From: an uncultured Gammaproteobacteria bacterium
GTDB taxonomy: Bacteria > Patescibacteriota > Patescibacteriia > VMEV01 > CAYQCH01
Direction of reading: 5' to 3'
DNA: 64,000 bases
Assembly: GCA_964503955.1 (NCBI GenBank)
Contig: CAZDCG010000002.1
Location: 269,047 to 333,046 of the forward strand
The position numbers and the translations under genes are program-made. Of this stretch, positions 28,604 to 64,000 are shown one piece after another. The notes under the pieces were generated by a model that saw nothing but the letters and a program-made list of their open reading frames with translations, was not told where the DNA came from and made no database searches. Position 1 is the stretch's first letter, and each line of letters opens with the position of its first letter.

Positions 28604-31600
28604 CTAGCTTCTGCGCAATCCGATATCTCCTTTCACGCTCTCCCCTTCTTTCTGAATACTGATTTGCGTAGGAAGCGGCTGGCGATCCTTTGGCGCTTCA
28701 ACGATTTCCGATTGAGTGAATCCCGGTTTTTCAGCCTTTAATACATATTTCCCCGGTTCAGGAGCAAAACGGAAACGTCCTTGATAATCCGACAGCCTTG
28801 ATGCAACCACTTTGCCAAAAGCCGGATCAATCAGCTGGAGATTGACCAGCGGCAATGGCGCATTGGTGGCGATATCGTAGACAGTTCCCCAGGCTTTTTC
28901 AGGCTTATGACGCAAGGTAAGCTGAAGCATGAAAAGAAGGATATACGCGGCCGACAAAATCCAGTTGACGGGATTTTCCGGAACAGCTGCCACGACCATC
29001 ACAGAAGCAAGCGATCCAACAAAGAGTAATGGCAAGGCAAGGAATTGACCGGCTTTCTGCAATGAGAGCCAAAGTTTCTTGAAGAGGCTGGCTGTCTGCC
29101 ATTTTTGCTCTGCATTAACAGGATCCATTGGCAGGTCAGGTACAACCAATTCCGTTGTTTGGTCGGTGATATCAACACCTCCCATGTAAACATGATCATA
29201 CTGCCCATCCTGACTGGTTCCAGTAACAATCGACGACGGGAAGGTATATTGCGGCTTTTTCACTTCAATGCGGTATGAACCAGGTTCAAGCAAAGCATCG
29301 TATTTGCCTTGTTTGTCCGTCACAAAGGTGGAAACGAGACGTTCTGAAGCACCGTCTTTCTTGTATAAGCGGACAATCGCCAAAGCAAGCGGATCTTTCG
29401 TGATAGCATCATACGCGATGCCGAAGAATCGCTGCTGCCCTTTCTTCCTTCTTCCCACTAGACCAACAAGATACGTGATCGCGTGATAGAGCAAGGTTGG
29501 CAAGTACGGAAGGTATCCCCACAAAGGAGCCGACGAGATGACAACCACGGGAGCGGCAACGGCTAATGTCTGCTGGATTTCTTCTTCTCGTTGTTCAACA
29601 ACGCGCTGCACTTCCTTGGTCACTGTCTTGATAGCCGTAACAAGCTCGCTTGAAGAAACAACGGTTTCAAAATCCGTTTGTACCTCTCCTTCTTTGGCGA
29701 TTGTCAGGGTGAATTCTCCTACTTGCACGCGCTCACTGCGCAAATCACCGGCCACGGCAATCGCCTCTACGCTGACACGCAAAGGTTCACCCGGTTGAGC
29801 TCCAAGCTGCTGAGCGCTGACATAAGCCTGCCAGACTCCGTTTGTATCGCTGACGGCCGATACGCTGATGAGTCCGTTGAAAATGAGGGTCACAACAGAA
29901 TTCGGCTCGCTTGTGCTTCCTGAGAATGCGATGCCTTCTTCCTGCTGATCAGCAAGTCCGTCAATCAGGACGGTCCGCGAGTCGTCTGTAACTTCAATAT
30001 TGAAGCTTTGACCATCGGTTGAAACGGTGGTTTGCGCGGGGCTTGGCATTGACGGACTTTGCGGCTCCGGCTGATTCAAAGAATCAATAAGCTGCTGCAA
30101 ATATTGCGGTGAAAGGCCGTCCTCTGTTGGTTCTGGGATTGGCCGAGGAAGTACCTCAGGCTGAGATTCAGGTTCCTGATCTGGTTCCGGTTCGTTCTTC
30201 GGCGTGATCAATGAAGCAATATCGACCTCAAAGTCTGCAATATTGCTGTAAATGGGTTCGGTGATTCCGGCATGATTCACGCTTGCCTGCAGCTGGATAA
30301 GAGGATTTGCCTGGGCAAGGACAGCGCTCGCTTCACTTGCCGAGAAATCATGCAAGAGAGCTGCGGTATCCAAGGCAATCTCAAATCGGATTGCGTGAGA
30401 TTGTCCCGGCTCAAGCATTGCCCAAGAGGCAGAGATGCCGTTTTGATTCGCCAGTCCGGGATCAGCTGCACCGGTTTCAGAACTTAAAGTACCATCGACT
30501 CTCAATGAACGGGGCGTATAGCTCACGTATTTAGGCAATGGAACATTTAGAATCACCTGATGAGCGTTCTTTGCGCCAGCATTACGAACGGAAGCTTCAA
30601 CAAGAATGCTCTGATGCGGCACAACAATGCCAGGTAGCTCATTTTCTGAAAGCGTCATCAAACGAATAGTCGGCAAGACGACGATCTCATCAGCCGACAA
30701 GGCTGGAATATGGATCATGCTGCTCCAGTCCGTGATCACGCCGTCAGCATTTCTGGCTCGCACACGCACTGAATACTCTTGGTCACCTTCAAGATTGCTA
30801 AAGGTATGGCTTGTCGTCTGAATCCAGTCTGATAATTGTGCTTGTGTCTGGCCGAGTACCGATACAAGCTCGAATTGAATAGCGCTTTGATTTGTCGTCA
30901 GATTGTTTATTGCTTCAACAACGGAAACCTCTACATTTGTATCCGTGCGAGAAGTTACTATCGGTGTTGGCTCAGGCATCCAAGTATAAACGTCAGGATA
31001 TACTCCGCTAGGAGTTCCCATGGATGATCCCAGATACGCAGCGATCTTGCGACCAGATATGAGTGTGTTGTGCCCCAATCCTTCTTCAGTTAATTGACGG
31101 GCCTGTGGCGAAGCAATCGTCGCAATGATTCGATTTTGAGCATCAAGCAGGTGAAACCCCTCGTGATTTGATCCCGCATAACTCCATTCATATTGCACGC
31201 GGTCATGGCTCAGCACGGTTGCCTCACCAAGATTCGGAATGTTCAAAGACTGGTGTTGAATGACCTGAGCTGGTGTCCCCTGACTCGATGAAGGTGGCGT
31301 TGCTCCATCTGGATAGTAAATTCGCGTTATGTATCCGTCTTCAGCGGACGTGGAAGCGATCTGATCACTGAACGGAGTTCCGGTTTGTGAAAGGGATGGA
31401 TATGCAGCTGATTCCAGATCTGAGTCGATTGTCTCTGAAGCGAAATAAATATTGTCACCTTCGATGATAAGCGAAGAGGCTACCTGCGCATCGCCAATTC
31501 GCGTTCCGTAAACCAAATCGGAACTTCCATTGCCATCTAGACTGAAACGGAGCAAACCAAATCCATCCTGATTGATATTGTTGCTGTAAGCACCGGCTGT

Positions 31601-34600
31601 AATTGGGAAGGTCGCATCGATTACTCTCAGCATGTACAAATCATCATTTCTTAAGAAGGCGGAGCTGCAGTTGCCTCCGTAGGAGCCATACACAAGATCA
31701 GCCGCGCCATTTCCGCCCGGATCGAGAACAAACATGTAACCATCGTCATCCGAAGTTGATTTATACGCGCCAGCCGTGATTGTCATGTCTCCGGAACCAT
31801 TGCTTCCACATCCGTAGATGTGCCCGGTAGATTCATGATGAATTACCGCCATAACAACCTCCTGATCGTTCCCCCCCATAAAGGTCGAATAGAGAAGGTC
31901 TGATGATCCGTTCCCGGAAGGATCCAGAACAGAAACAACCCCTTCGGTCCCAAACCCGGCTTTGACGGTATCAAACGCGCCAACGGTAACAGGATACGAA
32001 CCAGTATCTGAATACCCCGCCAGGTAGACAATGCCGTCATGGACATCAATACTTCTTAAAGCTTCAAATCCGCCTCCGCCCAAATATGTGGAGTATAAGA
32101 GATCATTTGCGCCGTTTCCGGCCAGATCAAGAACCATCACATAGAAGTCGATGCTGCCGTTTTGAGTAGTATCATAAGCTCCAGCCGTAGTGGGAAGATT
32201 CAATTGTGCAGGGCCGACTGCATACACAAGACCGTTTTCCACTCGAATTTCATCTCCTCCGATGATCCCGCGAGGCATAAGCCTTGTTGAATACTCCAAA
32301 ACAGATGCGTCGTTGTTGAAACGAAGGATAAATGCACCCGCATCCGCTGTGTTATCGAACGGAACTCCGCCTCCGTCCGCAATATATGGAATATCTGTTG
32401 AATGAGTCTCTCCAATGAGATAAATCTTGTCATCAGCAAAATCAAGAGAATTCAAGAGTGTTGTAGCATTTCCACCAAAGTAAGTTGCAAACTGCAAATC
32501 TCCGGCTCCGTTGCCATCAAGACTGAAGGCAGCGACATAAGAGTGGTCCGTACTATCGAACGTCTCATCATAAACTCCGGCAGTAACTGGAAAATCTACT
32601 GAGTCCGTTGATCCTGCTACGTAGACAATTCCATTCTCAACATCAAAACCGTTGACGGAATCACCCGCGCTTCCTCCAAAATAGGTTGAATAGTTTAGAT
32701 AAGGGGCGCCAGAATCCTGGATAAAACTTCCCATCGTCGTCCAATCAGATTGCGTTGTGCCGTTGTCATTTCGCGCGCACCAGTACTTTATTCCGTTCGA
32801 CAACGTGCTTACTCGCAAATACGTTATTGCATTCTTCGTGTTTGTGGCAGAGCTTGTCCCAGAGGCTTCTATATTTACATTTGCAAGACAATCCGCCGCG
32901 CTTCCACTGGAAACACGGAATTGCGTCGTACCCGTGAGCACCGAGTGAGTATAGTTAGACGCTAATATCACTACCCCTGCGCGAGTGGCCCCTTCATCTG
33001 GATAAACACGCGTCGGGGCTTCGGGAGGAACGGTCGCCGGGTCTAGTTCCGAATCAACCTCAAAGGAGATGAAAAAGGCTTCTGTTCCGCCATTGGCAAC
33101 AACGTCATAGGCATCACCACCGGTTGCAAAGGCAACAAAATCAGCAGAGTTGGTAATACCAGCCAGGGACAAATTTACCCCGTCATAATGCAGGGAATAA
33201 ACGGAATCTGCGCCCTCCCCGTCTAATTGAGTCGAAAAAGTCAGATCGTTTTGCCCATTGCCGGACGGATCCAGGATAGCCAAGAAGGCAGCGGAATCCG
33301 TGATGGATTCACCCGTCGATGTTACAAAATCGGAGCTGTTGGTTTCCCCTGCAATCGCAATGGAACCGGACGGTAATACCACGATTCCGTACGCGGCTTC
33401 ATCGGCGTCTCCGCCTATGAACGTTGAATACACTAAATCGTCGCCGCCATTGGAAGAAGGATCGATGATCACCGCGACTGCTTCAGAATTGCCGTTAAAT
33501 GATGAGCTGTACGCACCGGCTGTCGTTGGAAAGTTAGTTGAGTTGGTTAAGCCGGCAATATAGGCGATTCCTTGATCCACCTCCAGATCAAGCATGTCTT
33601 CATTGTCATCGCCTCCTAAGAAAGTTGAATATACCAGATCCCCCGACCCGTTGCCCGAAGGATCAATAATGGTAAGCGTGTCATCAAAAGGCCCGCCGCC
33701 ATAGGTGGTCTGCATCGCCTGGGCAGTCGTCGGAAAATTTGAATCGGTCGTGTAGCCAAGAATATACGCGTTGCCAGAATCAACCTCCACATCAACCGCG
33801 TCACTGGAACCGGTGCCAGTTCCAACGATGGTAGCGTACTGCAAATCAGCTGCTCCGTTACCATCAGGACTTATCAGGGCCAAAAAGATATCCGTCATCC
33901 CGTTTGCAGACTCATCATAGGCGCCGGATGTCGTCGGAAAGTCACTGCTTAGAGTAGAACCGGCGACGTAAATAATCCCACCGCCTACGTCAATTCCTCC
34001 AATATAATCGTCTTCTGCTAGCGTCCCCCCAATATACGTTGAATAGAGAAGATTCGAACCATCGGCCGCGAGACGGAATACAAATCCATCAAGAGCACCG
34101 GCATCGCTTGTAGAATCATATGCGCCAAGGCTTGTTGGAAAGTCGGCGGACGCGGTTGTACCGGCCGCGTAGACCTCGCCAGCAACAACTTTTATGCGAA
34201 GACTGCGGTGATCTCCAAAAGGTGATGCTGCATCCGTATCGGTACCGCCGATATACGTTGCATAGATCAAATCAGCATCCCCAGCCCCATCCGGCGAGAT
34301 TTTTGCGACGAACACATCGTTTGTACCGGCTAAAGATGTATCGTACGCCCCAAGTGTTGCGGGAAAATCAGCGGATGCTGTGCCGCCTGACACATAGATA
34401 TCTCCGCCCTCGACCGATATTGCGCTTGCCCAGTCATCATCCGAACCGCCTAAAAACGTTGAGTAGCTTACCCCGGCAGGGTGCAATAAATTTACCGTGA
34501 ACTCGCCCATTGAGGTCCAATCAGTCTGTTCCGTGCCATTGTCGTTGCGCGCGCACCAATAGTAGGTTTCACCATGAACAAGCCCGGAGGCTTCAAAGGT

Positions 34601-37600
34601 CGTTGGCTGATCCAATGATTCTGTGACGGCGCTTGTACCAAAATCAACAATATCAACACCGTTCACGCAATTAACCAACGAAGAGCTGCTGATTCTGTAT
34701 TCAGTGGTGCCCGTTTGAGCAGAATCTGTATACCAGGCGGAAAGGACAGGAGTTGATCTTGTGACCACAACCTGATCTTGCGGATAAATAATAAGCGGAT
34801 CCTGAAGCCCCTGCGCAGCGATGCGATACGCGACAAATTCACCTGTTGACGCGCGGTAGCCGGTTACATAGGCAAGGCTCGGGTCAATTGCGTCAATCGC
34901 ACTGTAAAACCCGGCCTCCGAATCGTCTCCATCAGGCTCGATATGAGTTGTGATATCCCAGGTATCACCGCCGTCTATCGAGAAAAAATATTGGAAGTCT
35001 AGATTGTTAGGAGCGGCTGCAAAGATATGGTCCGCGTCAGTCGCATCGATAGAAGGCCATTCAAAGAATCCCCCGGTACTGTCAATCACGCTGGTTTCCC
35101 ATGTCGCTCCTCCATCCGTTGTCTTCGCAAACATCAATGTTTGATCGGTATCATTTGTATAAACAGCATAAGCCGTAAGCTCGTCGATAACTTTGATCGC
35201 ATGTCCAAAACCGACATCTCCAACCGTATCAACATCGTTCAGAGTCCAGTTTGCGCCTCCATTGGTCGTTACAGCGGATTGGAGATCGCCATCCAAATCG
35301 TCACGATACAAAAGATAGATCGTGTTTTCATCAAATGCGTCGATCGCGTGCGGTGAGGTAATGTAGCCTGGCCCGACGGCGACCTCGGTTAAATCTCCGC
35401 CTGCATTTGTGGTAGACGTCACGTAAACCTGCCCATCCGCCTGTTTTGAATACGCAACAAAGAACGTATTGTCATCCACAACCGTAATGGCAGTATAGGA
35501 ATCAACATCATCGTCTTCATGTATGCCGATATAGGAGTCATCCGTTGTCCAAACCCAAACCTCGCTTAAAGGCCCGCCTCCGTCCCACGCATATGAAATA
35601 TAAGCAGTTCCGGAAGCAGTCGCGTCGATAGAGGTTGCGAAAACATCTGCATCAAAATCGAATTGATCCCAGGAGAATCCCCCGTTTTCAGAGAAGGCAA
35701 AGTATCCTTGACCGTTGTCTTCATCACGATAAGACGCGTAAAGATTATCCTCGTCGATCGCGACCATATCACTATCCGTCCCCGCGATATTGCCTCGTTG
35801 ATCAATGACAACTTCCGTCCAATTGCTTGTATCGATAGGGGTGGTATTTGTTTCATTCGACACGTCTCCCGTCCCAATCGCGTTTACCGCATAAACGACA
35901 AAGGTGTAATCGATGCCATTCACAAGGCCTGTTACGGTCGATTCCGGGATATCGCTGATACCGTCATCAAATACAGTGGCATTGCCCGGCCAGCCAGATG
36001 TTTCTCCGTATTCTATTACGTAATCTGTTATTGGTGATCCCCCGTCATTAGGCTCTGACCAGGTCAAGACTGCTTTACCGTTTCCAGGAGCGCCATCCAA
36101 ATCCGTGATAGCGGCGGGTGCGAATTGTCCTCCCATCCAGATTTCAAACGTTCCGGGCGCGCCCTCATGGATAGAAACCATGTCTAGCACACCATTTTTA
36201 TCCAAGTCCGCAAGCGCAGCATCAGTGCCGTGTTCTGCAACAGGAATCTGCCCTTTTGCGGAAAAATCAGGTGCCGCAGCAGAGTTGTTTAGTAAAATTT
36301 CATACCAACCATCGTTGAAACCGGGATTTGTGAATGCAACGATATCGGGATCATCGTCTCCATCAAGATCCCCTGATATGATCTCGCGGATACCATCGTT
36401 AAAAATGACATCAGGCTGAGACCAGGTAAATGAAGCACTCCCGTCGTTGGTACCAAAACTCAATGCGTCATTGGCAATGAGAAAATGATTGAAATCATCA
36501 GCGAGCAGGAACTGGTCCACAACAACATGATCCGTTGTTCCGAAATTGGCATCCGTTGAGTTGAAAGCAAAATTCGCGCTCCCGTCATTAAGCAAATATC
36601 CAACAGCATCGGTTGTCGCTCCCCCTTCGATAATGAGGTCAAGATCGTAGTCATTATCAAGATCAGCGGCATAGATCTCCAAAGAGGATGCCGTTACGGC
36701 ATAAGCCGCATCATATACCAGCTGGCTGCCATTATTGAGAAAGACAATGACATTTCCTGAAAAATACTGACTCACGGCAAAATCCATGAGCCCGTCTCCA
36801 TTGAAATCACCGGCAGCAACATCACCGAATGATACGTTATTCCCGCCCAGATCCACGGTCATCTCTGAATTGAAGTTCCCGCTGCCATCGTTCAAATGAA
36901 TTTCAATATCATTGCTTAAGTGAACGAAGATGATATCTAAATAGTCATCATCATTCATTGGAGCCAGTGAGATGTTGCGACCCTGAAGCCCCGGCTCTGA
37001 TATCACGATATCCACGGGAGAAGCAAAACCGCCAAGCCCGTCGCCAAGCCAGCGTTCCAGCCCTCCATTCATGTTAGAGATCACAAGGTCGAGATTGCCG
37101 TCTCCGTTCAAATCTCCTAATTTTACGTCGCTTGGACGCACGCCAAGACTTTGATCATTGTTGAACAATGTAGAGGAAGCATGTCCGAAATTCGCAAAAC
37201 CATTAGGCACGTTGACGGTATAGGTGAAGATATACGGGCCGTCTAACGGATCTCCCGTGGCGGCGGACAGGATCGCATTCGTAAGGGTGACGCTTACTTT
37301 TTCCCCTGCAAAATCAAATCCATCAGTTGGAGTAAACTGAACGGTTGTGTCTCCATTGCTGAACGCAAAATTTCCCAAGCTTCTGCGTCCCGTCTGGTTT
37401 CCAATCACCACAAAACTATCAGCCGTAATACTTGCCTGATCGACTGCTTCAGAAAAATCAACCGTGATGGGTGAATTGAAAGCAACACCGTTCGCGTGCA
37501 ATGACGGGGTGGTCGAAACAACAGATGGAATACCGGCGACAAAGACGGATGCCCTGACTCCAACTGCTTTATCGGATTGATATTGAGCAAGAAAGTATGA

Positions 37601-37660: not shown

Positions 37661-37765
37661 AGATCGCGGCCTTCAAAGATCATGCATTACAAATTCATTA
37701 TAGCAAATGGGAACAACTATTTATGCACAAATAGATGCGGTATAGACAAGATAGGCGTATCTGAA

Positions 37766-45478: not shown

Positions 45479-45539
45479 AGATATCCTGTCAACATCATGC
45501 GTTCATTGTAACAGACAGAGACCAGAGATCAACACGTGA

Positions 45540-53048: not shown

Positions 53049-53133
53049 AAGTTCGTGAGTGTAAAGTCAATTCTATACACAGATTATAGCATGGATGAGA
53101 AATACTCTCCGCTGACTTATCCCCTGAATATGC

Positions 53134-53160
53134 AAAAAAAGAGCAGCGATTTCGCTGCTC
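53134..53160 (-). terminator. Intrinsic terminator immediately 3' of giant gene 4: perfect 8-bp GC-rich stem (GAGCAGCG/CGCTGCTC), 4-nt loop, U7 tract on minus strand
   Basis: aaaaaaa gagcagcg attt cgctgctc read on the minus strand gives hairpin + UUUUUUU. Also A/T-flanked on plus, so it is bidirectional in form. Confidence 0.6.
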
Positions 53161-53167
53161 TTTTCTC

Positions 53168-56100
53168 TTAGCCTCGTGATGTCATCGGTACATCGCCCGT
53201 AATACGCTCATTTGTCTTTTGGACCTCGATTTCAGGGGGGATCGGGTGATGTTGATCATCTGGTGCTTCAACAACTTCCCGGACCTGCTCATAGCCTGGC
53301 TTGTTTGCCTTGATGACATACTTGCCTGGTTCCGGCATGAAGCTGTACCGGCCCTGGTAGTCAGTCAGCCGGCTGGTAACGACCTTTCCATACTGCGGAT
53401 CAATGAGCTGGACAGTTGCCAATGGCAGCACGGCGTTCGTAGCTAGATCGTACACGACACCCCATGCTTTTTGGGCATGCACACGAAGTTCAAGCTGAGC
53501 AGACAACATGCCTACATACACAATCGCAAGCAGCCAGTTGATCCAGTTATCTGGAACCGTAATGACAACCAGAATACTTGCGAGCGAGCCGATGAAGAGA
53601 ACAGGAACAGCGAGGTAGTTGCCCACTTTTTGCAGCAGCATCCAGAGTTTTTTGAGGCCGCTGCTGAGCTGCCACTGGCGCTGCGCATTGACCGGATCAA
53701 GAGGAACGTCAGGAATAACCAAGTCTTGTTCCTGCACAATTATTCCCTGTTCATTGCTGTACGCATGATAATTGCCGCCAATTTCAGAGGTCACGATTTG
53801 GCTTGGGAACGTGTATGTCGGTTTGGTCACTTCAAGTCGGTAGTTGGCAGGTTCGAGAAGCGCTTCATACCTGCCCTGCTTGTCGGAAACCTGCGTAGAA
53901 ACGAGCTTGTTGGTTTCCTTGTTGTAGATACGGATGATAGCAAGTGCTAATGGCTGCTTGGTAATGCTGTCGTAGACAGTGCCGTAAAAACGGCGGTCTT
54001 GTTTCTTCTTGCGGCCGAGAAGGCCGATCAAATACGTGAAGAAGTGATACAACAGCGTCGGCACATATGGCAGGTATCCCCACAAAGGCGCGCTGGCGAC
54101 GAGCACTACCGGAGCCGTGACAGAAAGACTTGTCTGGATTGTCTGCTGTTGTTCCTCAATAACCTGCTGAACCTGTTGTACAGCACCGATAAAGCCGGTT
54201 GTTTTCACGTCGACATCAGTGAAATCGGTCGTGATCACGTCCTCGGTCAAGCGCGTTACGTTGACCAGACCGACAACAACTTGTTCGCTGCGAAGTTCAC
54301 CTTTGGCAGCGATTGCTTCAACACGGATCTGACGTGACTGGCCTGGAAGCAAGCCGATATCATCAGCACTAACAAATGTACGCCATTGCCCGGATGCATC
54401 ACTTGTGACGATCATCGTGACAGTGTCATTGATGATGATTGTTACTGTTGTAAATGGCTCAGTAGTCGTACCACTGAATTCAACCCCATCACCATTTGTC
54501 ACCGCGTTTCCGCTCACTCCCAGAAAAGCCGTGCCTCCCTGCGTTTCCAACTCAAACGTTCCCGGGCCGGTGGTCACGTCCGTGTTACCAACCTGCGGTG
54601 ATGGTTGCGTTGGCTGGCTCGGCTTGTCCGGCTGTAGAATATCCTCGATAACGACCACTTCTTCTTTTGTTGGTGGCGCAACCGGCTCTTCCACCACATC
54701 CTCTGTTGTAACAAAGGAGTTCAACTCTGGTTCCGCAACAACAATGTTGCTGTAGGTCGGCTCGGTCGTGGAATCTTCACTTGCAATTGCCTGCAACTGC
54801 AGCTGAGGGCCGGCAGCAGCCAGAGCTTCGCGAATTTCACTCGTGTCACCTGATTCCACGCTGATGTTTTGCAGCAGCTGGAATAGATCTTCTCTGGTAA
54901 CGACAGGGGCGCGTAAGGGCTCCTTAGGCAGTCGATTTTCGTCAATCTGTGAGTCATCATCGAGAAAATCGCGAAGCATGGACTGCGTGTCAAAGGCCAG
55001 GATGAAAGAAAGCGTGTGACCAAAACCGAAGTCCAGTGTCGGCCAAATGCCAGCAACTGTTTCCTGTGTAAACTGCCCGGCATCCCCATCTGGAATTTCG
55101 CTGTTGCGTACGCCGTTTACTCGCAAAGAACCTGGAATGTAGCTCAAATACGGAGGCAATGGAACAGTTAATAACACATTGCGAGCCTGCAACGCGCCAT
55201 TATTAAGAATGTGTGCCTTCACATACAAAAGCTCATTTGGATTCACCGGACCGCTTATGCTACGGCCGTCAGCTGTTGTTACTTGGAGGTCTACAAGCAA
55301 TTCTATCGGCGCCTGAAACTCCTGCGCGCTGATCATGACATTATTGCTCCAGTCAGTTTCTACTCCGTCGTAGTTGCGCGCTCTCACGCGAGCATAATAA
55401 GCCTGGTCACGATCGGTGTTTTCAAAGACATAGGTACTGGCCTGGATCCAGTCACTTGCAATGATTGCGGAACCTGATACAGAATCCGCCGGCATGAGTT
55501 CGAACTGAACCGCGCTTTGACCTGAGGTCAAGTGATTGAGTTCTTCCGTAACCCCGACACGAATACGATCATCTACGCGTGAAATCTGAGTCAGTGTGAC
55601 GGAAGTCATATGCGTGTAGACCGATGGGAAAGTCTGACTGGAGGTCCCGCGCGTTGATCCGACAAAAGCGGCAACGCGACGTCCTTCAATCAAGGTGTTA
55701 TGAGGCAAACCACTTTCAACGACAGTGCGAACCTGTGCTTCATTAACGATCTCAAGAATGGTTTGTTGCTGATCAAGCAGGTAAAAGCCGCTGTGACCCG
55801 TTGTTGAGTAGCCCCATTCATACTGCACGCGGTCATGACCGGTCGTGCGCACGCTAACGATGGTTGGCGTGGAAAGCGACTGTGTCTGGATGCGCTGGAT
55901 GGAAGACCCGCCTCCTCCACCGCCTCCTCCGCCACAGCCGGCGCCAGCACTAGAAGGGATTTCCGTAGAAAAACCGAAGCCGTCATTGCCCCCAAAAGCA
56001 ACGGAGCTAAAATACCCACCAGAAACCGGCATATCTGACGACGTTGTCTCACCCGCTACGTACAGTACATTGGTGTCTGCAACATATGTCGCGCCTTGGT

Positions 56101-59100
56101 CATATTCCTCTCCGGATCCGCCAAAGTAGGACGCATAAACCAAATCACAAGCTCCATTTCCCTCAGGCGCAAACCGGCCAGCGACATAATCGAAACTCCC
56201 GGCGTTTATGTCTTGGTATGCATTGTCAGTCACAGGAAATCCTGATTCATAACTACCGGAGAATACCAGCGTATCCCCATCCAACGTCATTTCCGTGCAC
56301 CAGCCGTCGCCGGCTCCGCCGAGGAAAGATCCATACACTAGATCATCAGCGCCGTTTCCCCCAAGCGTAAGCTGATAGATAAACATGTCTCCAGAGCCAT
56401 TATGCGTTTCATCAAACGATCCTGCGGTGGTGACAAATGCAGGGTCATAGGTCATGCCACATACGAAGAGATCGCCAGACGGGCTTTCTGCAACCACATC
56501 GTAGGCACCATCATAATCATTATCGCTGCCGACGATCGTTCCATACACAAGAGATGTAACATCGGTTCCGGTTGGATCGATTTTCAGGACGAACCCATCG
56601 GCATTCACGGTATCGACAGTCGTGTCGAAGGCTCCTGCCGTCAAAGCCGGAAAATCAGCGGAAGCGGTTTCCCCCGCGATATAGATATTTCCGTTGTCGT
56701 CAAAATTGATGCCGCTGATCAGATCGTTCCCACTGCCTCCCACATACGTGCTGTAAAGCAGAGATGCCATGCCAGTTTCATTCGTATCGATCTTCATGAT
56801 GAAACCGTCGTTATTGGCAAGATCTCCCGTGGAATCAAAAGCATTTCCTGTCAGAGGTAGATCTGCGGATGTTGTTCTCCCGGCCAGATACACAATGCCG
56901 TTGTCGTCGACACGCATGCTTTTCCAGCCCATTTCATCTTCCCCGCTTCCTCCGACATAGGTGCCGAAGAGGACTTCATCAAGATCCGCGTTGAGTTTGG
57001 CCAAATACACATCATCATTCCCTGAATACGTCATGTCAAAACCTGAAGTATTCGGGGTATGGGTTGCAAACACATCAGCGGAGCTTGTCGCGCCGGCGAT
57101 ATAGACGTTTCCTGATGCATCTACGCGTCCCGCACGGACTGGGTCATGATCTGAGCCCCCGAAATAGGTAGCGACTAAGACACTGCTTCCGTCTGCTGAC
57201 AATTTGGCCAGAATGCCATCTTGCATGCCAGATAAATCTTCTTGCAAACCGGCATCTGCAGGGAAATCCGCAGAAAAAGTCGTACCGATCATGATGATAT
57301 TGTCAGATGTATCAAGACCGATGCCTAACAGTTGGTCATTTGCGTTTCCGCCAAAATACGTGGCAAATCCATCATACCCATCTCCCATGGTGAACATAGC
57401 TTCTTCTGTTGAAAACGGACCTTCCGTGCCCTCGTCATCCCAGAACTTGATGCGCCAATAGTAGGTTGCCCCATCATCCGCAAGTGGTGTGCCTCCGTAG
57501 GTGATATCCGCGCTTCTCGCGCCGCTTGCGCAATCAGCCATTGCTGTTCCGGAAGCCCCTGAGTCCCAAAGCACCGAACTGAAATCGTTGTCGTTATCAA
57601 CTTGAATACGGTACTTATTGAGCGTATCTCCCACATTATCGTTACAAATCGCGCTGAAAGCGGGGGTGGGATGCAAAATCCCGGTTGGGTTTGCGGATCC
57701 TTGCTGAGCGTCGGTATCGTCTACGTATAAATCGGTCGGCTCTGAAGGAGACGTATTCGGCACCGCCATGGTAAATGCATTGGTAGATAACGGATCCTCG
57801 CTCCATACGCCGACCAACCCTTCATCATCCCAGAAACGAATACGCCAATAGTACGTGGTGCCGTCTAATAACAAAGGATCCCCGCCATAATGAATGTCCT
57901 GGCTGCGGCTTCCCGCAACGCAATCCGCCATAGCCGTACCAAGAGCGCCGCTGTCCCAGATGGTTGAACTAAAATCATTTTGATCATCCACCTGGATTTG
58001 GTAGAGGTTCATGATATCCCCAGGATTGCCGTCGCGGCAGATCGCGCTGAATGCCGGTGTCGTATCGGCAATTCCTGCGGGGTTTGAGGCGCCCGCCTGC
58101 GCTGAATCATTGTTGCTATAGAGATCGATAGGAGCTGACGGAGCAATATTCTCCGGAGCCAAAGCCAGCTTCACGAAATAGGCATCAGCCCCTCCTGACT
58201 TTGCAGACTGAAAGACACCGGCAGTTGATGGAAAATTCGGATCGTTGGTATTTCCTGTGATATAGAAATTTCCGGCATCGTCCAGAGCAACTCCCATGCC
58301 ATTATCTGTTCCAGTGCTACCAAAGTACGTTGAATAGATTAGATCATCAGCGCCTTGGCTGCCAGGATGAAGCTTAACAATGACAAGTGATAACGGATCA
58401 CTGGAAAAAGCGCCATCAGTGGTAGGGAATGCTAGGCTGTTTGATTTTCCTTGAAAATAGACAACACCGTCCGTATGCACACGAAGGTCAATACACCAGT
58501 CATTGTTGACATCTCCAATAAGTGTTCCATAGGAGAGATCAGCATTTCCGTTACCTGCGGTATTGAACTTCATCACGAAGGCATCCCCCGCTCCGCTCAA
58601 AGATGTAGCATAAGCACCTGCGGTCGTAGGAAAATCAGAAGAGTTTGTTTCTCCACAAGTGAATACATCTCCATCCGGCCCCATGGCAACCCCGTACGCA
58701 TAGTCCCATCCATTGCTTCCACCGATCATTGTGCTATAAGCCAGTGATGTGATGTTCGTCCCATTAGGATCGATCCGTATAAGAAATGCATCACAGTTTG
58801 AGTCGTCAACCGTTGTATCAAATGCCCCAGCGGTCGTTACGAAATCAGCTGAACAGGTATCTCCCGTTACGTAGACATGCCCGTTTTCATCAAAAACCGT
58901 GGTCCAGCTCTCATCAAAGCCTGATCCTCCAACGTAGGATGAATAGACCAAGGATGCCGCGCCAGACTGAGTCGTATCAATGATCGTGATAAATGCGTCC
59001 CCATTATATGATTCATCCGGCCCATCCCCTACGGTATCAAAAGCATTGGGTGTAAGCACAAAGTCTGATGAATATGTAATTCCTGTGATCGCCACGCGAC

Positions 59101-62100
59101 CATTTGTGGGGTGCACGGAAAGACCGCCAAACCACCAGAAGTCCTCATAGTCAGAACCACCGACATATGTCGTAAACAAAACAGTATCGATATCTTCATT
59201 TAGCTTGACGACATACACATCAGCCAAATCCGTGTCAGGAGTTGTATCAAATCCTTGAATCACTCCGGGATACTTGGTGGAGAATGTGTCGCTTGCATAA
59301 CTTGCTCCTCCAATATAGACATTTCCATTCTCATCAACAGCTCCATTTGATGGATAGTCATCCGAATTACCACCGAGATAGGTTGAAACAAGTGCGGTGC
59401 CTGCCGTAGAATCAAGTTTTGTGATAAAAATGATGTGATCCGAGCCGGGGTTCGTTGCCTGGATGGGATTTACCATCGGAAAATTAGTTGAACTGGTCCG
59501 CCCCATCACAACCGGGTTTCCATTCGTGTCAAATCCAATCGCATTGCCAATATCTTGACCAGAACCTCCTAAAAAAGTGCCGTAAGAAATAACCTCTACA
59601 AGATCAACCGTGAATGTGCCCATCGGGGTCCAATCCCCTGTAAGATCCTCATCGTCCCCCTGCGCGCACCATGCATAGGAATTCCCATCCACAAGGGCTC
59701 CACTGACAACGGTTGCATCTGTAAATGCACTCACGACCTGGCTGCTTCCTGAAAAAACGATATTGATATCATTCACGCAGTCTGTGGTTGTACCGCTTGA
59801 AACGCGAACATGGATTAAACCAGAATCCTTTGCGTCGAAGTCGCGGAAATTGGCAACCAGAGAAGGGGTGAGTGAAATTACATTCGCTCCGTTGCTGGGA
59901 GACACCAGAACGGGGGCGGATGGAGCCTCATTCTTTGTACTGGCCTTGATGATGATACCATCCCAACTGCCACCCCGATGAGTTGGCTGGATCACACCGC
60001 TGGTCGCCATCCCTCCGGAGTTGGTGGAACCGACGATATAAGCGACTTCATTATCATCAACAAAAAGTCCGCCACCGCTATCGTATCCATACCCTCCGCT
60101 CATAACATAAAAAGACGAAAAGATCAGATCACCATCAGAGCTCAGCTTTGTCAGAAGAATATCGGTGAATGCACGGGGCTTTGTCCAAATTGCATCAGCC
60201 GTCGTAGGAAAATCATCTGAACTGCTTGCCCCTACTGCGTAAATATTTCCTGATGCATCCAAGGTAACAGCACTAAAACTCTCATCTTCAGCTCCGCCAA
60301 CATACGTCGAGAAAAGCAGGGATCCCGCTCCGCTGCTATTTGTATTAAATTTAGCAATGAAGGCTTCTTGGCCCCCATTATATGTGTTGTCATACGCATT
60401 AACGGTTGGGAATCCCGATACGGTCGTATAGCCAGCAATCACAGCCTCGCCACTATCATTGGCCGCAATTCCGTATGCAAATGAAACCGAGGCCGTGTTC
60501 ACACCGAGGGCGGAAGAATACATTAAAGAAGAACCTGTAGAATCAAAACGAGCAATAAAAGCATCTGATGATGAATTTTCTGTTGCAGCCATGTAACGGC
60601 CTGCGGTGGTTGGAAATGTCGCGTCGCGGGTTTCTCCAGCAATATAAATCGTGTTGCTTGAATCAAGCGCAATGTCATACGCCGCATCAACTCCTTCGCC
60701 ACCCAGATAGGTCGCGAACAAAAGTGCAGATCCTGCCGAATTCATCTTGGCGACAAATACGTCCGAATCACCACCATTATAAGTACTGTCATAAACGCCT
60801 AAAGATATTGGAAAGTTCCCCCAAAGCATATCCTCGCTGGATCCTGTTGAACCCGTGATATAGATGCTGCCAGAATCATCAACGGCAACGGCACGTATTG
60901 TTTCAGGCAAATCGCCACCAAACGCCGTTGAAAAGGATAAAGAATTACCATCGGCAGACAATTTGGTAATGAAGCCGTCAGTGTTCAACGTGTCAGACGG
61001 TGTTGTATCATAAGCGCCTACCGTTGTGGGGAAATCTTGAGAATTCGTCCAGCCGCCAATGATGAGCTCACCGCTATCGAGAAGGACAATATCAAGTGCC
61101 AAATCACTTTTTGCACCCCCCAGATAGGTTGAATAGATGACCGGTGAAGTGGCCGTGGAATTGATTTTGACGACGAAGGCATCTCGGGAACCGCCAAAGG
61201 TTTCGTCATAATGTCCCGCGACAGAAAACCAGTTGGTGGAGTACGTTTCCCCTGCAATGTACGCATTCCCGTCATCATCCACTTGAACAGAATAAGCATA
61301 ATCATTCGCGTTTCCTCCAAGATAGGTGCTGTAGTAGACACGAGGATCAATGACGAGCTCATGAGCAGGGTCATAGCTTCCAAGTTTAAACCCGTAGCTT
61401 AAAATGCCGTTCAGCTGATATTCAACCTCAACAGGCACTTTCTCTCCGTTAATCATCTGATAAGCTTCAGGTTTTTTGATGCCTATATCGCCGAAGTCAG
61501 AAACAAGGGCCAAGGAACCGTCTTCGGCGATCCGTAAACGATCGATTCCTTCAAATGAAACACCGATGGGCGATGGATCAGCGTTGGGCGCGACATGGTA
61601 ATCGAATTTAAGAGCACCGTCTTTGCCTGAGTAGACGAGATCAATCCCTTCGTAGAGCTGATTGTATCGAATCCTTTCGTATGTCGGCACGTTCTTTTGC
61701 CACTTGGTGGGATCATTGCCAAGCAAATAATTTACGACCCCCGGCATCTGCGCTTCGCTTGTAATTTCGGAATTCTTATTCGCACCATTAAATACCTGTT
61801 TAATAGCAAGTGTTTCCACTTTTTCATCATCCCGATTCTCCGGCCTTTTTCGCCGAGGTTCACGCTCTATGTCCTCTTCCTCCTGAGAAATACGTCGCGT
61901 CAAGGCATACATGACATGGTCCGGCGCAAAAAAGATCGTTTGCCCCTGATTTTTGACCAAAAACTTCACTACCTCATCCACCTGTCCTCGATTCTCTTGA
62001 AAACTGAGCGAGAGCCCGCTCAAGAGCTGTTGAACCTGATCATCAGAAACAGGTGCCGCTTGTTTGTCGAAAGTCAGACGTTCACTTTTGTACAGATACC

Positions 62101-62182
62101 CAATCACAAAAACGATAGCCAAAATGACTATCGCCGCCAACCACGCGAAGATGTTTTTTCTGAAAAATCTGTGGGCTTTCAT
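53168..62182 (-). CDS. Giant surface protein 4 (3004 aa). Domain order: signal anchor, ENRGQ domain, SBBP-like repeats, tandem pair of FSAIC modules, SBBP-like repeats, poly-Gly hinge, FN3/DUF11-like mid-region (shared with gene 1), Ig-like, diverged C-terminal anchor
   Basis: The N-terminal 300 aa is about half identical to gene 2 by eye (LSFQENRGQVDEVVKFLV). Internal GGGGGGGGG run. The mid-region (HDRVQYEWGY...DWSNNV...LNNGALQARNVLLTVPLPPYLSY) is homologous to gene 1. The C-terminal TM/CarboxypepD_reg module is roughly 60% identical to the others by eye. Confidence 0.8.
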   Translation of the reverse strand: MKAHRFFRKNIFAWLAAIVILAIVFVIGYLYKSERLTFDKQAAPVSDDQVQQLLSGLSLSFQENRGQVDEVVKFLVKNQGQTIFFAPDHVMYALTRRISQEEEDIEREPRRKRPENRDDEKVETLAIKQVFNGANKNSEITSEAQMPGVVNYLLGNDPTKWQKNVPTYERIRYNQLYEGIDLVYSGKDGALKFDYHVAPNADPSPIGVSFEGIDRLRIAEDGSLALVSDFGDIGIKKPEAYQMINGEKVPVEVEYQLNGILSYGFKLGSYDPAHELVIDPRVYYSTYLGGNANDYAYSVQVDDDGNAYIAGETYSTNWFSVAGHYDETFGGSRDAFVVKINSTATSPVIYSTYLGGAKSDLALDIVLLDSGELIIGGWTNSQDFPTTVGAYDTTPSDTLNTDGFITKLSADGNSLSFSTAFGGDLPETIRAVAVDDSGSIYITGSTGSSEDMLWGNFPISLGVYDSTYNGGDSDVFVAKMNSAGSALLFATYLGGEGVDAAYDIALDSSNTIYIAGETRDATFPTTAGRYMAATENSSSDAFIARFDSTGSSLMYSSALGVNTASVSFAYGIAANDSGEAVIAGYTTVSGFPTVNAYDNTYNGGQEAFIAKFNTNSSGAGSLLFSTYVGGAEDESFSAVTLDASGNIYAVGASSSDDFPTTADAIWTKPRAFTDILLTKLSSDGDLIFSSFYVMSGGYGYDSGGGLFVDDNEVAYIVGSTNSGGMATSGVIQPTHRGGSWDGIIIKASTKNEAPSAPVLVSPSNGANVISLTPSLVANFRDFDAKDSGLIHVRVSSGTTTDCVNDINIVFSGSSQVVSAFTDATVVSGALVDGNSYAWCAQGDDEDLTGDWTPMGTFTVDLVEVISYGTFLGGSGQDIGNAIGFDTNGNPVVMGRTSSTNFPMVNPIQATNPGSDHIIFITKLDSTAGTALVSTYLGGNSDDYPSNGAVDENGNVYIGGASYASDTFSTKYPGVIQGFDTTPDTDLADVYVVKLNEDIDTVLFTTYVGGSDYEDFWWFGGLSVHPTNGRVAITGITYSSDFVLTPNAFDTVGDGPDESYNGDAFITIIDTTQSGAASLVYSSYVGGSGFDESWTTVFDENGHVYVTGDTCSADFVTTAGAFDTTVDDSNCDAFLIRIDPNGTNITSLAYSTMIGGSNGWDYAYGVAMGPDGDVFTCGETNSSDFPTTAGAYATSLSGAGDAFVMKFNTAGNGNADLSYGTLIGDVNNDWCIDLRVHTDGVVYFQGKSNSLAFPTTDGAFSSDPLSLVIVKLHPGSQGADDLIYSTYFGSTGTDNGMGVALDDAGNFYITGNTNDPNFPSTAGVFQSAKSGGADAYFVKLALAPENIAPSAPIDLYSNNDSAQAGASNPAGIADTTPAFSAICRDGNPGDIMNLYQIQVDDQNDFSSTIWDSGALGTAMADCVAGSRSQDIHYGGDPLLLDGTTYYWRIRFWDDEGLVGVWSEDPLSTNAFTMAVPNTSPSEPTDLYVDDTDAQQGSANPTGILHPTPAFSAICNDNVGDTLNKYRIQVDNDNDFSSVLWDSGASGTAMADCASGARSADITYGGTPLADDGATYYWRIKFWDDEGTEGPFSTEEAMFTMGDGYDGFATYFGGNANDQLLGIGLDTSDNIIMIGTTFSADFPADAGLQEDLSGMQDGILAKLSADGSSVLVATYFGGSDHDPVRAGRVDASGNVYIAGATSSADVFATHTPNTSGFDMTYSGNDDVYLAKLNADLDEVLFGTYVGGSGEDEMGWKSMRVDDNGIVYLAGRTTSADLPLTGNAFDSTGDLANNDGFIMKIDTNETGMASLLYSTYVGGSGNDLISGINFDDNGNIYIAGETASADFPALTAGAFDTTVDTVNADGFVLKIDPTGTDVTSLVYGTIVGSDNDYDGAYDVVAESPSGDLFVCGMTYDPAFVTTAGSFDETHNGSGDMFIYQLTLGGNGADDLVYGSFLGGAGDGWCTEMTLDGDTLVFSGSYESGFPVTDNAYQDINAGSFDYVAGRFAPEGNGACDLVYASYFGGSGEEYDQGATYVADTNVLYVAGETTSSDMPVSGGYFSSVAFGGNDGFGFSTEIPSSAGAGCGGGGGGGGGSSIQRIQTQSLSTPTIVSVRTTGHDRVQYEWGYSTTGHSGFYLLDQQQTILEIVNEAQVRTVVESGLPHNTLIEGRRVAAFVGSTRGTSSQTFPSVYTHMTSVTLTQISRVDDRIRVGVTEELNHLTSGQSAVQFELMPADSVSGSAIIASDWIQASTYVFENTDRDQAYYARVRARNYDGVETDWSNNVMISAQEFQAPIELLVDLQVTTADGRSISGPVNPNELLYVKAHILNNGALQARNVLLTVPLPPYLSYIPGSLRVNGVRNSEIPDGDAGQFTQETVAGIWPTLDFGFGHTLSFILAFDTQSMLRDFLDDDSQIDENRLPKEPLRAPVVTREDLFQLLQNISVESGDTSEIREALAAAGPQLQLQAIASEDSTTEPTYSNIVVAEPELNSFVTTEDVVEEPVAPPTKEEVVVIEDILQPDKPSQPTQPSPQVGNTDVTTGPGTFELETQGGTAFLGVSGNAVTNGDGVEFSGTTTEPFTTVTIIINDTVTMIVTSDASGQWRTFVSADDIGLLPGQSRQIRVEAIAAKGELRSEQVVVGLVNVTRLTEDVITTDFTDVDVKTTGFIGAVQQVQQVIEEQQQTIQTSLSVTAPVVLVASAPLWGYLPYVPTLLYHFFTYLIGLLGRKKKQDRRFYGTVYDSITKQPLALAIIRIYNKETNKLVSTQVSDKQGRYEALLEPANYRLEVTKPTYTFPSQIVTSEIGGNYHAYSNEQGIIVQEQDLVIPDVPLDPVNAQRQWQLSSGLKKLWMLLQKVGNYLAVPVLFIGSLASILVVITVPDNWINWLLAIVYVGMLSAQLELRVHAQKAWGVVYDLATNAVLPLATVQLIDPQYGKVVTSRLTDYQGRYSFMPEPGKYVIKANKPGYEQVREVVEAPDDQHHPIPPEIEVQKTNERITGDVPMTSRG

Positions 62183-62244
62183 GCTTGTATTTTATCTAAA
62201 TCATTCCCGATTTGAAAGAACAGATATGCACAGCTTTGAATGCG

Positions 62245-64000
62245 CTATGCCTGCCGTAACCCAAGATCACCCTTGATACTTTCCCCCTCTCTTTCAATGA
62301 TGATTTGCGATGGCAGCGTCTGACGATCTTTTGGAGCTTCTATCGTCTCTGATTGCTGAAATCCTGGTTTTTCCGCCTTCAACACATATTTTCCAGGCTC
62401 AGGAGCGAATCGGAACCGGCCCTGGTAATCGGATAGCCTTGAAGCGACGACTTTGCCGAATGCCGGATCAATCAGCTGAAGATTCACCAGAGGCAAAGGC
62501 GCATTGGTGACGATATCGTAAACAATCCCCCAAGCCTTTTCAGGCTTTTGACGGAGTTTCAGCTGCAACAAGAACATCAGCACGTAAGCGACGGACAAAA
62601 TCCAGTTGATTGGATTCTCAGGGACTGCCGCCACAACAACAACTGACGCAAGCGAACCCACAAAAAGCAATGGAAGCGCGAGGAAATGGCCTGCTTTCTG
62701 CAATGTGAGCCACAATTTCTTTAAGATATTTGCTGTCTGCCACTTCTGTTCCGCATTGATTGGGTCCATTGGCAAGTCCGGAACAATCAATTCAGTTGTT
62801 TGGTCCGTAATCTCAATGCCACCCTGGTAGACATGGTCATACTGTCCGTCTTGTGAGATACCTGACAGAATCGATGACGGGAAAGTATATTCTGGCTTCT
62901 TGACCTCAATGCGGTATGAACCAGGTTCGAGAAGCGCATCATACTTTCCTTGTTTATCCGTCACAAACGTAGAAACGAGACGTTCAGATTCACCATCTTT
63001 CTTGTAGAGACGGATGATTGCCAAGGCGAGCGGATCTTTTGTAATCGCATCATAAGCCACACCAAAGAAGCGCTGCTGGCCTTTCTTGCGTCTTCCAATC
63101 AAGCCGACAAGATATGTAATCGCGTGATACAGCAAGGTTGGCAGGTATGGGAGATACCCCCATAAAGGAGCGGATGAGATGACCACCACGGGAGCGGCAA
63201 CCGTCAATGTTTGCTGGATTTGCTCCTCATTGCGTTCAACCGTTTTCACAAGCTCTTTGACCGCAAGACGAACGGCAGTAAGGGCCTGACTTGATGAGAC
63301 AATAGATGAAAATTCGGCAAGGACAGAACCGTCTGCAGCATGGGAGAGAACAAAATCTCCGACATGGACAATTTCGCTTCGCGTGTCATTGACAGAAGCC
63401 ACGGCATCGATTCTGACCGTTTGATCCATTCCAAGGTCTATGCCAAGCTGTTCAGCGCTGACATAAGTTTGCCAGAACCCTGAGGCATCTGTACGAACAA
63501 TAACAGAAACACCATTATTGAAGATTAATGTCATAACCGTGTCCGGCTGAGATGACCGGCCAATAAACTCAATCTGATCTCCTGTAACACGAGCGGATCC
63601 TGTCACTTCAAAAATCGTTCTACGGCCATTATCGGCCTCGCTCACGGCAATAGCGAAACTCTTTCCGTCGCTTGAGCTTTGTGTTGACACCTCCCGGCCC
63701 TGATCAAGCCCTGCCCCACCATTTCCAATCATTCCCCCTATTTCGCTGGTTTCTTCGCCAATGAGTTGATGAATTCCATCAATTTGGCTTGTTTCATCTG
63801 CCGTTGGCGGCAAAACAGGTTCTTGATCAGCGGGCAGCATCACCGGCGGTTCTGGAGCCACAGGGAACGATGACAGGTCTACAAATAATATTTTTTGGGA
63901 TATCACAACTGACTCGGTCTCCTGCGCGCTAACACTTGCCTGTAAGATGTACGCTGCAATTTCGCTCTCGCCATCCTGCAATTGAGTTTGTTTCAGATCA
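62245..64000 (-). CDS. Giant surface protein 5, 5'-partial (frame open to window end; ORF-track start at 63981 is an in-frame TTG, not the real start). Ig-like + shared C-terminal 3-TM/CarboxypepD_reg anchor
   Basis: The reverse-complement frame stays open through 64000 (...DLKQTQLQDGESEIA...). No signal peptide in the visible part. The C-terminal 470 aa is highly similar to genes 1-3 (e.g. WGIVYDIVTNAPLPLVNLQLIDPAFGKVVASRLSDYQGRFRFAPEPGKYVLKAEKPGF). Confidence 0.75.
   Translation of the reverse strand, partial: DLKQTQLQDGESEIAAYILQASVSAQETESVVISQKILFVDLSSFPVAPEPPVMLPADQEPVLPPTADETSQIDGIHQLIGEETSEIGGMIGNGGAGLDQGREVSTQSSSDGKSFAIAVSEADNGRRTIFEVTGSARVTGDQIEFIGRSSQPDTVMTLIFNNGVSVIVRTDASGFWQTYVSAEQLGIDLGMDQTVRIDAVASVNDTRSEIVHVGDFVLSHAADGSVLAEFSSIVSSSQALTAVRLAVKELVKTVERNEEQIQQTLTVAAPVVVISSAPLWGYLPYLPTLLYHAITYLVGLIGRRKKGQQRFFGVAYDAITKDPLALAIIRLYKKDGESERLVSTFVTDKQGKYDALLEPGSYRIEVKKPEYTFPSSILSGISQDGQYDHVYQGGIEITDQTTELIVPDLPMDPINAEQKWQTANILKKLWLTLQKAGHFLALPLLFVGSLASVVVVAAVPENPINWILSVAYVLMFLLQLKLRQKPEKAWGIVYDIVTNAPLPLVNLQLIDPAFGKVVASRLSDYQGRFRFAPEPGKYVLKAEKPGFQQSETIEAPKDRQTLPSQIIIEREGESIKGDLGLRQA

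Follow-up and report, generated by a model that had tools for sequence, protein, structure and literature searches.

Array of giant surface-protein genes and their modules

The 64,000-nt window analysed here (positions 269,047 to 333,046 of contig CAZDCG010000002.1, assembly GCA_964503955.1) contains an array of five giant surface-protein genes, all on the minus strand in head-to-tail order, with intergenic spacers of 61-119 nt. Four of the genes are complete (2502-3018 aa), and the fifth is cut by the window edge. The genes are numbered 1 to 5 and labelled gD, gC, gB, gA and gP, respectively, in the trees. All four complete genes start with ATG and encode an N-terminal hydrophobic export segment and a full C-terminal anchor. 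The modules were mapped by a combination of Pfam searches, BLAST of 100-aa tiles, BLAST of individual modules with negative controls, and family hidden Markov models (HMMs).

Gene 1 (28604-37660, minus strand, as are all features of the window given below; 3018 aa) encodes, from the N to the C terminus, a signal/anchor segment, a head composed of Big_5, FG-GAP and fn3 domains (aa 1-930), two SBBP-like propeller super-repeats (aa 931-2090), a mid region, a pre-anchor and the anchor, and it has no Ig module. In the product of gene 2 (37766-45478; 2570 aa), the signal/anchor segment is followed by DUF7948, SBBP propellers, one Ig_Rha78A_N-like domain, an acidic E/P-rich linker at the position where the mid region would sit, the pre-anchor and the anchor. 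Gene 3 (45540-53048; 2502 aa) begins with a Cys-rich head (aa 1-550) and continues with two propeller super-repeats, one Ig domain, the acidic linker, the pre-anchor and the anchor. Gene 4 (53168-62182; 3004 aa) opens with DUF7948 and propellers, followed by two tandem Ig domains (aa 1342-1600) and a further propeller block (aa 1600-2050) that duplicates aa 900-1200; it ends with the mid region, the pre-anchor and an anchor of another lineage than those of the remaining four genes. The part of gene 5 (62245 to beyond 64000) within the window encodes the C-terminal 584 aa, comprising the pre-anchor and an anchor that groups with those of genes 1-3; no mid region was detected in these 584 aa, and the head, propeller and Ig part lies outside the window.

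The DUF7948 heads of gene 2 (44639-45478, aa 1-280; PF25778, E 3e-65) and gene 4 (61328-62182, aa 1-285; PF25778, E 2e-63) are clearly related. Together with the preceding hydrophobic segment they are 50.5% identical over 289 aa (BLASTP, E 8e-91), whereas the same query retrieved nothing from genes 1 and 3 (BLASTP, E > 0.3). PF25778 and PF06739 scored above their gathering scores in these two genes only (220.7 and 143.6 bits for gene 2, 214.9 and 136.7 bits for gene 4), and the propellers of genes 1 and 3 were recognised solely through BLAST to genes 2 and 4. The colinearity of genes 2 and 4 extends across ~1800 aa. In the head of gene 1, Big_5, FG-GAP_3 and fn3 all exceed their Pfam cut-offs. 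The head of gene 3, which contains 10 Cys within the first 300 aa, yielded no Pfam match and resembled none of the other window genes (Pfam, BLAST), and is 69% identical to the corresponding part of P0004, a protein from another metagenome.

The mid region of about 380 aa was identified in gene 1 (30209-31285, aa 2126-2484; family HMM, independent E value (iE) 5e-144) and in gene 4 (54716-55915, aa 2090-2489; iE 3e-166), and the two copies are 38% identical (E 1e-77). The family HMM found it in no window gene besides these two, and BLAST against the others gave E > 0.3. In gene 4, it ends in a disordered tail that comes after three tandem FN3/Ig-like beta-sandwiches; the AlphaFold model of the region displays three tandem beta-sandwiches, the Foldseek matches of which are FN3 tandems, and a DUF11 repeat match falls below its cut-off. 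Every shared module is found in gene 4, including the Ig_Rha78A_N-like domain, which occurs there as two tandem copies (57383-58159), each with an FSAIC motif.

An earlier sequence-only reading of the array had proposed most of this composition. The N-terminal domain common to genes 2 and 4 and missing from genes 1 and 3, the Big-like, FG-GAP and FN3 start of gene 1, the Cys-rich start of gene 3 and the anchor common to all five genes were borne out, and the quoted motifs occur where they had been placed. The sharing of ~300 aa between genes 2 and 4, estimated as about half identical, was correct in identity but too short in extent, as the colinearity shows. The mid region is indeed private to genes 1 and 4 within the window, and its description as FN3 and DUF11-like was roughly right, apart from the DUF11 match below cut-off.

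Gene 4 additionally contains an internal segmental duplication (56100-59500, aa ~900-2050), in which the propeller block at aa 900-1200 and its counterpart at aa 1650-1930 (44-58% identity) flank the two tandem Ig domains in the order X-Ig-Ig-X'. The second block is nearest to gene 2 aa 1350-1750 (52-59%). In genes 1-4, each 590-aa propeller super-repeat is preceded by a marker segment of ~100 aa (e.g., gene 2 aa 752-850), which gave weak matches to the Ig-module HMM (iE 1e-3 to 0.3) and may represent a diverged Ig-like spacer.

All five genes share the 330-aa C-terminal anchor. In gene 2 it occupies the last 330 aa (37769-38758) and is composed of a first transmembrane helix (TM1), a transthyretin-like sandwich, a TM2-TM3 hairpin and a second transthyretin-like sandwich; the equivalent modules lie at 28607-29596 (gene 1), 45543-46532 (gene 3), 53171-54160 (gene 4) and 62248-63237 (gene 5). 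Across the five window proteins and three relatives, the mean column identity of the anchor alignment is 73%, with the invariant motifs PLWGYLPY and KAWG.VYD and a PENP loop in the transmembrane hairpin. The AlphaFold model (pLDDT 79.8) reproduces the order TM1, beta-sandwich, TM2-TM3 hairpin, second beta-sandwich. Structurally, the sandwiches are similar to the SdrD B domain, to SpaA pilin and to transthyretin-like or CarboxypepD_reg-like domains, and no Pfam or NCBIfam model covers the module as a whole, both matching the sandwich domains only. Basic clusters follow TM1 and TM3 (RRKKGQQR and RQKSEK), and acidic residues precede TM1. Based on these clusters and the positive-inside rule, both sandwiches would be located in the cytoplasm, on the opposite side of the membrane from the giant ectodomain, which would be unusual for this fold. 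No LPXTG-type tail occurs in the anchor alignment, as the C-termini are formed by a folded beta-sandwich after three transmembrane helices. Sortase anchoring as in MSCRAMM proteins or pilins was therefore rejected; only the sandwich fold resembles that of SdrD B and SpaA.

A recent tract and conflicting module histories

A tract of 1359 nt (1.36 kb) is nearly identical between genes 2 and 3. The copy in gene 2 (38558-39916, aa ~1855-2307) runs from within the Ig domain, of which it encodes the C-terminal two thirds, through the acidic linker, pre-anchor and TM1 to the first residues of beta-sandwich 1 of the anchor, and the copy in gene 3 is located at 46326-47666 (aa ~1795-2241). Between the two copies there are 8 substitutions and one in-frame indel of 18 nt, and the last 869 nt match perfectly. 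In the codon alignment, the first ~1800 aa of the two proteins, upstream of the tract, display ~30% amino acid identity with third positions near random; at the tract the identity rises abruptly to ~100% at the nucleotide level, and the rest of the anchor is ~75% identical. The synonymous divergence (dS) is 0 within the tract. The same segment is saturated for all other pairs, and everywhere outside the tract synonymous sites are saturated or dS is ~0.5-2. The 1.36-kb tract was thus very recently copied between genes 2 and 3. It begins at the FSAIC motif inside the Ig domain and ends ~67 aa into the anchor, just past TM1. As these borders are conserved sequence islands inside domains, the tract is to be regarded as homologous gene conversion and not as the exchange of cassettes with defined ends.

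A search with gene 4 identified only three close family members, namely the tandemly encoded P0002 and P0003, both on a single contig of 81.9 kb, and P0004 on a contig of 12.7 kb. Genome scanning with the anchor revealed further arrays in three species represented by metagenome-assembled genomes (MAGs), CAYHTI, CAYGRO and CAYQCH. The copy number of the arrays ranges from 2 to at least 5, and the related arrays lie in different genomic contexts: none of the 11 proteins flanking the array in the window matched the related loci (0/11), either because the contexts differ or because the compared flanks were too short. In the tile map, P0004 matches gene 3 as its orthologue across the head and the first propeller (57-82% identity) yet carries an Ig domain and the mid region, and P0002 resembles gene 4. 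P0003 is colinear with the gene 1 propellers at 50-60% identity but carries an Ig domain. The mid region is present in P0002, P0003 and P0004 and in every complete relative from CAYHTI, CAYGRO and CAYQCH, i.e., in all of the ~10 close relatives. Its absence from genes 2 and 3 is therefore derived and, as the site is located within the identical tract, most simply explained by one deletion shared through conversion.

Two further observations concern these relatives. The identity between gene 3 and P0004 falls from ~71% in the head and first propeller to ~50% in the second propeller near aa 1290 (gene 3 aa 1162-1740, 47829-49565), which could reflect a further old breakpoint or a change in rate. 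In the CAYGRO array (L004), a 94-nt piece of the anchor 3' end (10887-10980) is repeated with 87% identity at 11967-12060, ~1 kb downstream of the last array gene, and may be the remnant of a lost copy.

Neighbour-joining trees on corrected p-distances with bootstrap were calculated for the individual modules. The propeller tree groups the window repeats with those of other genomes, namely gB_R1 with P0004_R1 (100%), gB_R2 with P0004_R2 (100%), gD_R1 with P0003_R1 (100%), gD_R2 with P0003_R2 (95%) and gA with P0002 (98%). The anchor tree, in contrast, unites gD, gC, gB and gP (100%), and further contains the groups of gA, P0002 and P0003 (93%) and of P0004 and L005a (92%). The pairwise values display the same conflict. 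Between gB and P0004, head and propeller are 69-71% identical (nonsynonymous divergence (dN) 0.22) and the anchors 54% (dN 0.44), whereas between gB and gD the propellers are 39% identical (dN 0.64) and the anchors 81% (dN 0.14). Overall, the anchors of genes 1, 2, 3 and 5 are 81-87% identical to each other and 50-55% identical to those of P0003 and P0004. The homogenised block begins abruptly at TM1, where the nucleotide identity among these four genes amounts to 88-90%; the pre-anchors of the window are 37-45% identical and no closer to each other than cross-genome pairs. The anchor of gene 4 escaped homogenisation and stays with its orthologue lineage. As no one tree yields both the propeller and the anchor pattern, a single congruent history is refuted. 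The results demonstrate that the head lineages are old, with orthologues in other genomes, and that the anchors of genes 1, 2, 3 and 5 were homogenised within this genome, that is, by concerted evolution at the 3' end. The DUF7948 tree, in which genes 2 and 4 group together (73%), differs from the propeller grouping of gene 4 with P0002 (98%); this hints at a second exchange within the genome, which is not robustly supported, however, and is not claimed here.

Probable gene conversion and its alternatives

We consider it quite probable that at least five giant surface-protein genes of a candidate phyla radiation (CPR) bacterium form a tandem array here, in which old heads are combined with a shared anchor and DNA is exchanged between paralogues by conversion. 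The process is homology-driven gene conversion together with 3' concerted evolution and module loss. Each protein would consist of an N-terminal export/anchor segment, a lineage-specific distal head (DUF7948 with SBBP propellers; Cys-rich with propellers; or Big_5/FG-GAP/FN3 with propellers), an Ig/FN3-like stalk formed by the Ig_Rha78A_N-like domain, the mid region and the pre-anchor, and the three-helix C-terminal anchor with two transthyretin-like domains. Ordinary homologous recombination of neighbouring paralogues probably acted here through non-reciprocal gene conversion and possibly unequal crossing-over; exchange would start where the DNA is conserved, e.g., at the FSAIC motif in the Ig domain or around TM1 and the anchor. 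Genes 2 and 3 would lack the mid region owing to a single deletion spread by conversion, and DUF7948 in genes 2 and 4 as well as the mid region in genes 1 and 4 were probably inherited rather than shuffled. The outcome would be a repertoire of binding heads on a common anchor, probably serving attachment to host cells or substrates, in which new head-stalk combinations arise only occasionally.

Several points weigh against this interpretation or limit its reach. Among the anchors of genes 1, 2, 3 and 5, dS ranges from 0.5 to saturated, which indicates that their homogenisation was ancient and rare rather than ongoing. The quartet topologies of these four anchors are near-equal (26/25/21 sites) and star-like, and a PHI-type test within the anchors was weakly significant (p = 0.03), so that the older homogenisation is not divisible into individual tracts. 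For the recent tract, the Ig tree (35%) and the pre-anchor tree (72%) are too weak to name the donor. Look-ups of the exact proteins of genes 3 and 4 found no independent copy on record, and a metagenome scan with a 41-nt string across the tract junction in gene 3 gave no match; the near-perfect tract could partly be an assembly artefact. Moreover, the trees are neighbour-joining and not maximum likelihood trees, the propeller comparison is based on only three full-length close relatives, and the function as adhesins is a probable one, deduced solely from domain types.

The most direct form of the artefact explanation is that one repeat copy was threaded into both genes 2 and 3 during assembly, in which case the shared loss of the mid region would be unreal. 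The contig was indeed assembled from a metagenome, a perfect repeat of 869 nt often exceeds what short-read inserts can resolve, and no independent assembly of these genes was found. However, the two copies differ by 8 substitutions and the in-frame 18-nt indel, and both keep long intact frames and join unique flanks in frame, which argues that both are real. In addition, divergence climbs gradually at the 5' end of the tract, as in nested or patch-repaired conversion, and the incongruence between heads and anchors is independent of the tract, leaving this explanation exceedingly unlikely. Plain duplication and divergence from a gene-4-like ancestor, with differential loss and gain of domains and without exchange between paralogues, would agree with the presence of all shared modules in gene 4, with their similar identities to the other window genes (~38-57%), with the occurrence of the mid region in all close relatives and with synonymous sites that are saturated in nearly every comparison. 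Yet such a history can give rise neither to anchors that are 81-87% identical in genes whose heads are closer to other genomes nor to a sharply bordered tract with a dS of 0 in genes otherwise ~30% identical, and it is already contradicted by conflicting splits with 100% support. We therefore hold it to be very improbable.

Programmed or high-frequency surface variation, i.e., an antigenic-variation or contingency locus in which anchor and Ig motif act as recombination handles that re-assort heads and stalks, would fit the tandem array on one strand with its short spacers (61-119 nt), the conserved 3' handle with 88-90% nucleotide identity at TM1 in genes 1, 2, 3 and 5, and the presence of one very recent exchange. 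Large surface proteins in a lineage thought to be host-attached, as described in passages of an earlier study (PMC8080830), point in the same direction. On the other hand, the four complete genes are all full open reading frames with starts and export segments and not truncated silent cassettes, and self-BLASTN of the 28-64 kb region found no further partial copies. The sole DNA repeats in this region are six matches of anchor and tract. No recombinase, invertase or reverse transcriptase was found when the products of 20 neighbouring genes across the 28 kb downstream were compared with Pfam, a search that did not include sequence motifs or the upstream side of the array, which lies outside the window. 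The related arrays in three other genomes display no recent tracts, the best nucleotide identity being 64-72%, and dS marks the exchanges as rare on an evolutionary time scale. We regard programmed variation as improbable. A silent-cassette system was rejected, since all copies are complete genes and no further partial copies exist in the region, and so was a diversity-generating retroelement, as neither a reverse transcriptase domain among the scanned neighbours nor extra near-repeats in the region were found.

With gene conversion as the favoured explanation, the evolutionary part of the sequence-only reading has to be revised. Its conclusion that the family did not evolve by duplication and divergence alone is upheld by the incongruent module trees, in which propellers group across genomes and anchors within the genome. 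The block from FSAIC to TM1 in genes 2 and 3 proved to be near-identical as described, although the FSAIC motif and the Ig domain are not private to this pair, given the two copies in gene 4. The patterns of module presence and absence, which had been taken as evidence of shuffling, fit vertical descent with loss, genes 2 and 4 being old colinear paralogues, and cassette shuffling at module borders is at odds with a tract that ends inside domains (at FSAIC of the Ig domain and at the start of the first anchor beta-sandwich). Of the parallel drawn to adhesin or antigenic-variation repertoires, the exchange between paralogues as in adhesin families holds, whereas antigenic variation finds no counterpart in silent copies, in a recombinase or reverse transcriptase among the 20 neighbours, or in the saturated dS.

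A more far-reaching proposal, which we consider improbable, is that the anchor and the FSAIC island of the Ig domain would serve as built-in recombination handles. By these, a host-dependent cell would re-assort heads and stalk lengths, e.g., by dropping the three-sandwich mid region, and shift its host or ligand range at the population level, and the anchor may define a large, uncharacterised mount of giant CPR surface proteins (at least 749 sequence clusters).

Known systems, anchor family and genomic neighbourhood

Gene conversion and concerted evolution in adhesin families are textbook processes, and the array is a fresh example of this known mode of evolution, here in giant surface proteins of the CPR whose anchor is uncharacterised. 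In the outer-membrane adhesin paralogues babA/babB and homA/homB of Helicobacter pylori, the 5' end and middle, which encode the ligand-binding part, are alike between strains and the 3' end, encoding the membrane anchor, is alike within a strain, and chimeric bab and hom genes arise by intragenomic RecA-type gene conversion (PMC3960876). The cross-genome grouping of heads and the within-genome grouping of anchors in the array correspond to the pattern of babA/babB/babC and homA/homB. However, the bab and hom genes encode proteins of ~700 aa with a beta-barrel outer-membrane anchor at dispersed loci, whereas the proteins of the array have 2500-3000 aa, are encoded in tandem and possess a helical anchor. 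Conversion of bab and hom has been seen in real time and is coupled to phase variation; the array displays only one recent event. According to a study on yeast FLO adhesins, recombination of paralogues yields chimeric alleles and new head-stalk combinations (PMC3512402). The FLO genes are, in contrast, eukaryotic and often subtelomeric, their recombination is driven by internal tandem repeats, and they have no shared membrane anchor of the kind found in the array.

Segmental non-reciprocal copying between related sequences alters surface proteins in Neisseria (pilE/pilS) and Borrelia (vlsE). The same kind of copying changes a surface protein of Mycoplasma genitalium (MgPa/MgPar), as outlined in PMC2169797. 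These programmed systems rely on one expression site, silent partial cassettes and high-frequency switching, whereas the array consists of complete genes with rare exchange. By domain types, the array proteins are similar to the giant membrane proteins of CPR bacteria of the Vampirococcus lugosii type, for which beta-propeller, integrin/FG-GAP, fibronectin and DUF11-type domains and a proposed role in host recognition and attachment are described in passages of PMC8080830; these passages mention no tandem array, shared C-terminal anchor or recombination of paralogues. Proteins with DUF7948 and SBBP (PF25778 and PF06739) are widespread, ~3670 being found mostly in Acidobacteria-type, Thorarchaeota and other MAGs with many different C-terminal modules. 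Among the best 120 matches listed, only three (P0002-P0004) carry the anchor of the array. Genes 2 and 4 match both models, whereas genes 1 and 3 are without DUF7948.

The anchor itself belongs to a far larger family. A word-indexed protein search with the anchor profile gave only 24 matches, mostly fragments, whereas exhaustive HMM searching returned 5053 cluster representatives at E <= 1e-3 and 749 at E <= 1e-30. Among the matches listed, the proteins measure ~300-3600 aa and differ in their upstream modules, and the anchor lies at their C-terminus or close to it. Within the best 143 representatives, gD-like and gB-like head types occur with or without propellers, Ig domain and mid region, which indicates that re-assortment of modules has marked the anchor family over long time scales. 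As heads and anchors differ in history, analysis of such families by a single tree or by whole-protein clustering is misleading. Most CPR/Patescibacteria have not been cultured and apparently live on other cells to which they attach, and their giant surface proteins are foremost among the candidates for recognising the host. The locus, with its repertoire of old, distinct heads on one anchor and neighbouring copies still exchanging DNA, thus offers a concrete handle on the diversification of the cell surface in reduced CPR genomes.

The assignment of the organism to the CPR/Patescibacteria is based on the seryl-tRNA synthetase (SerRS) encoded in the window, the named homologues of which come from Patescibacteria, Parcubacteria, Kerfeldbacteria or Peregrinibacteria, and on one anchor homologue annotated as 'Parcubacteria group bacterium'. 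The MAGs CAYHTI01, CAYGRO01 and CAYQCH01 (L003-L009) bear the title 'uncultured Gammaproteobacteria bacterium', a label that is probably wrong, as the named SerRS relatives are all of the Patescibacteria type. The same organism was found in the Logan assemblies SRR11843816 and SRR11843834, there only as contigs of 3-8 kb around SerRS.

The remaining 28 kb of the window are occupied by housekeeping genes on the same strand as the array, including those for UvrC, a cyclophilin, three GT2 glycosyltransferases, DUF4012, two MreB, MreC, PBP2, several tRNA synthetases, a Mur ligase and FemAB. The presence of two full MreB paralogues (13586-14641 and 19518-20543) in addition to MreC and PBP2 was observed here in a CPR bacterium with a small genome. 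The minus strand carries every family-assigned open reading frame in the 64 kb, and the cumulative GC skew declines over most of the window.

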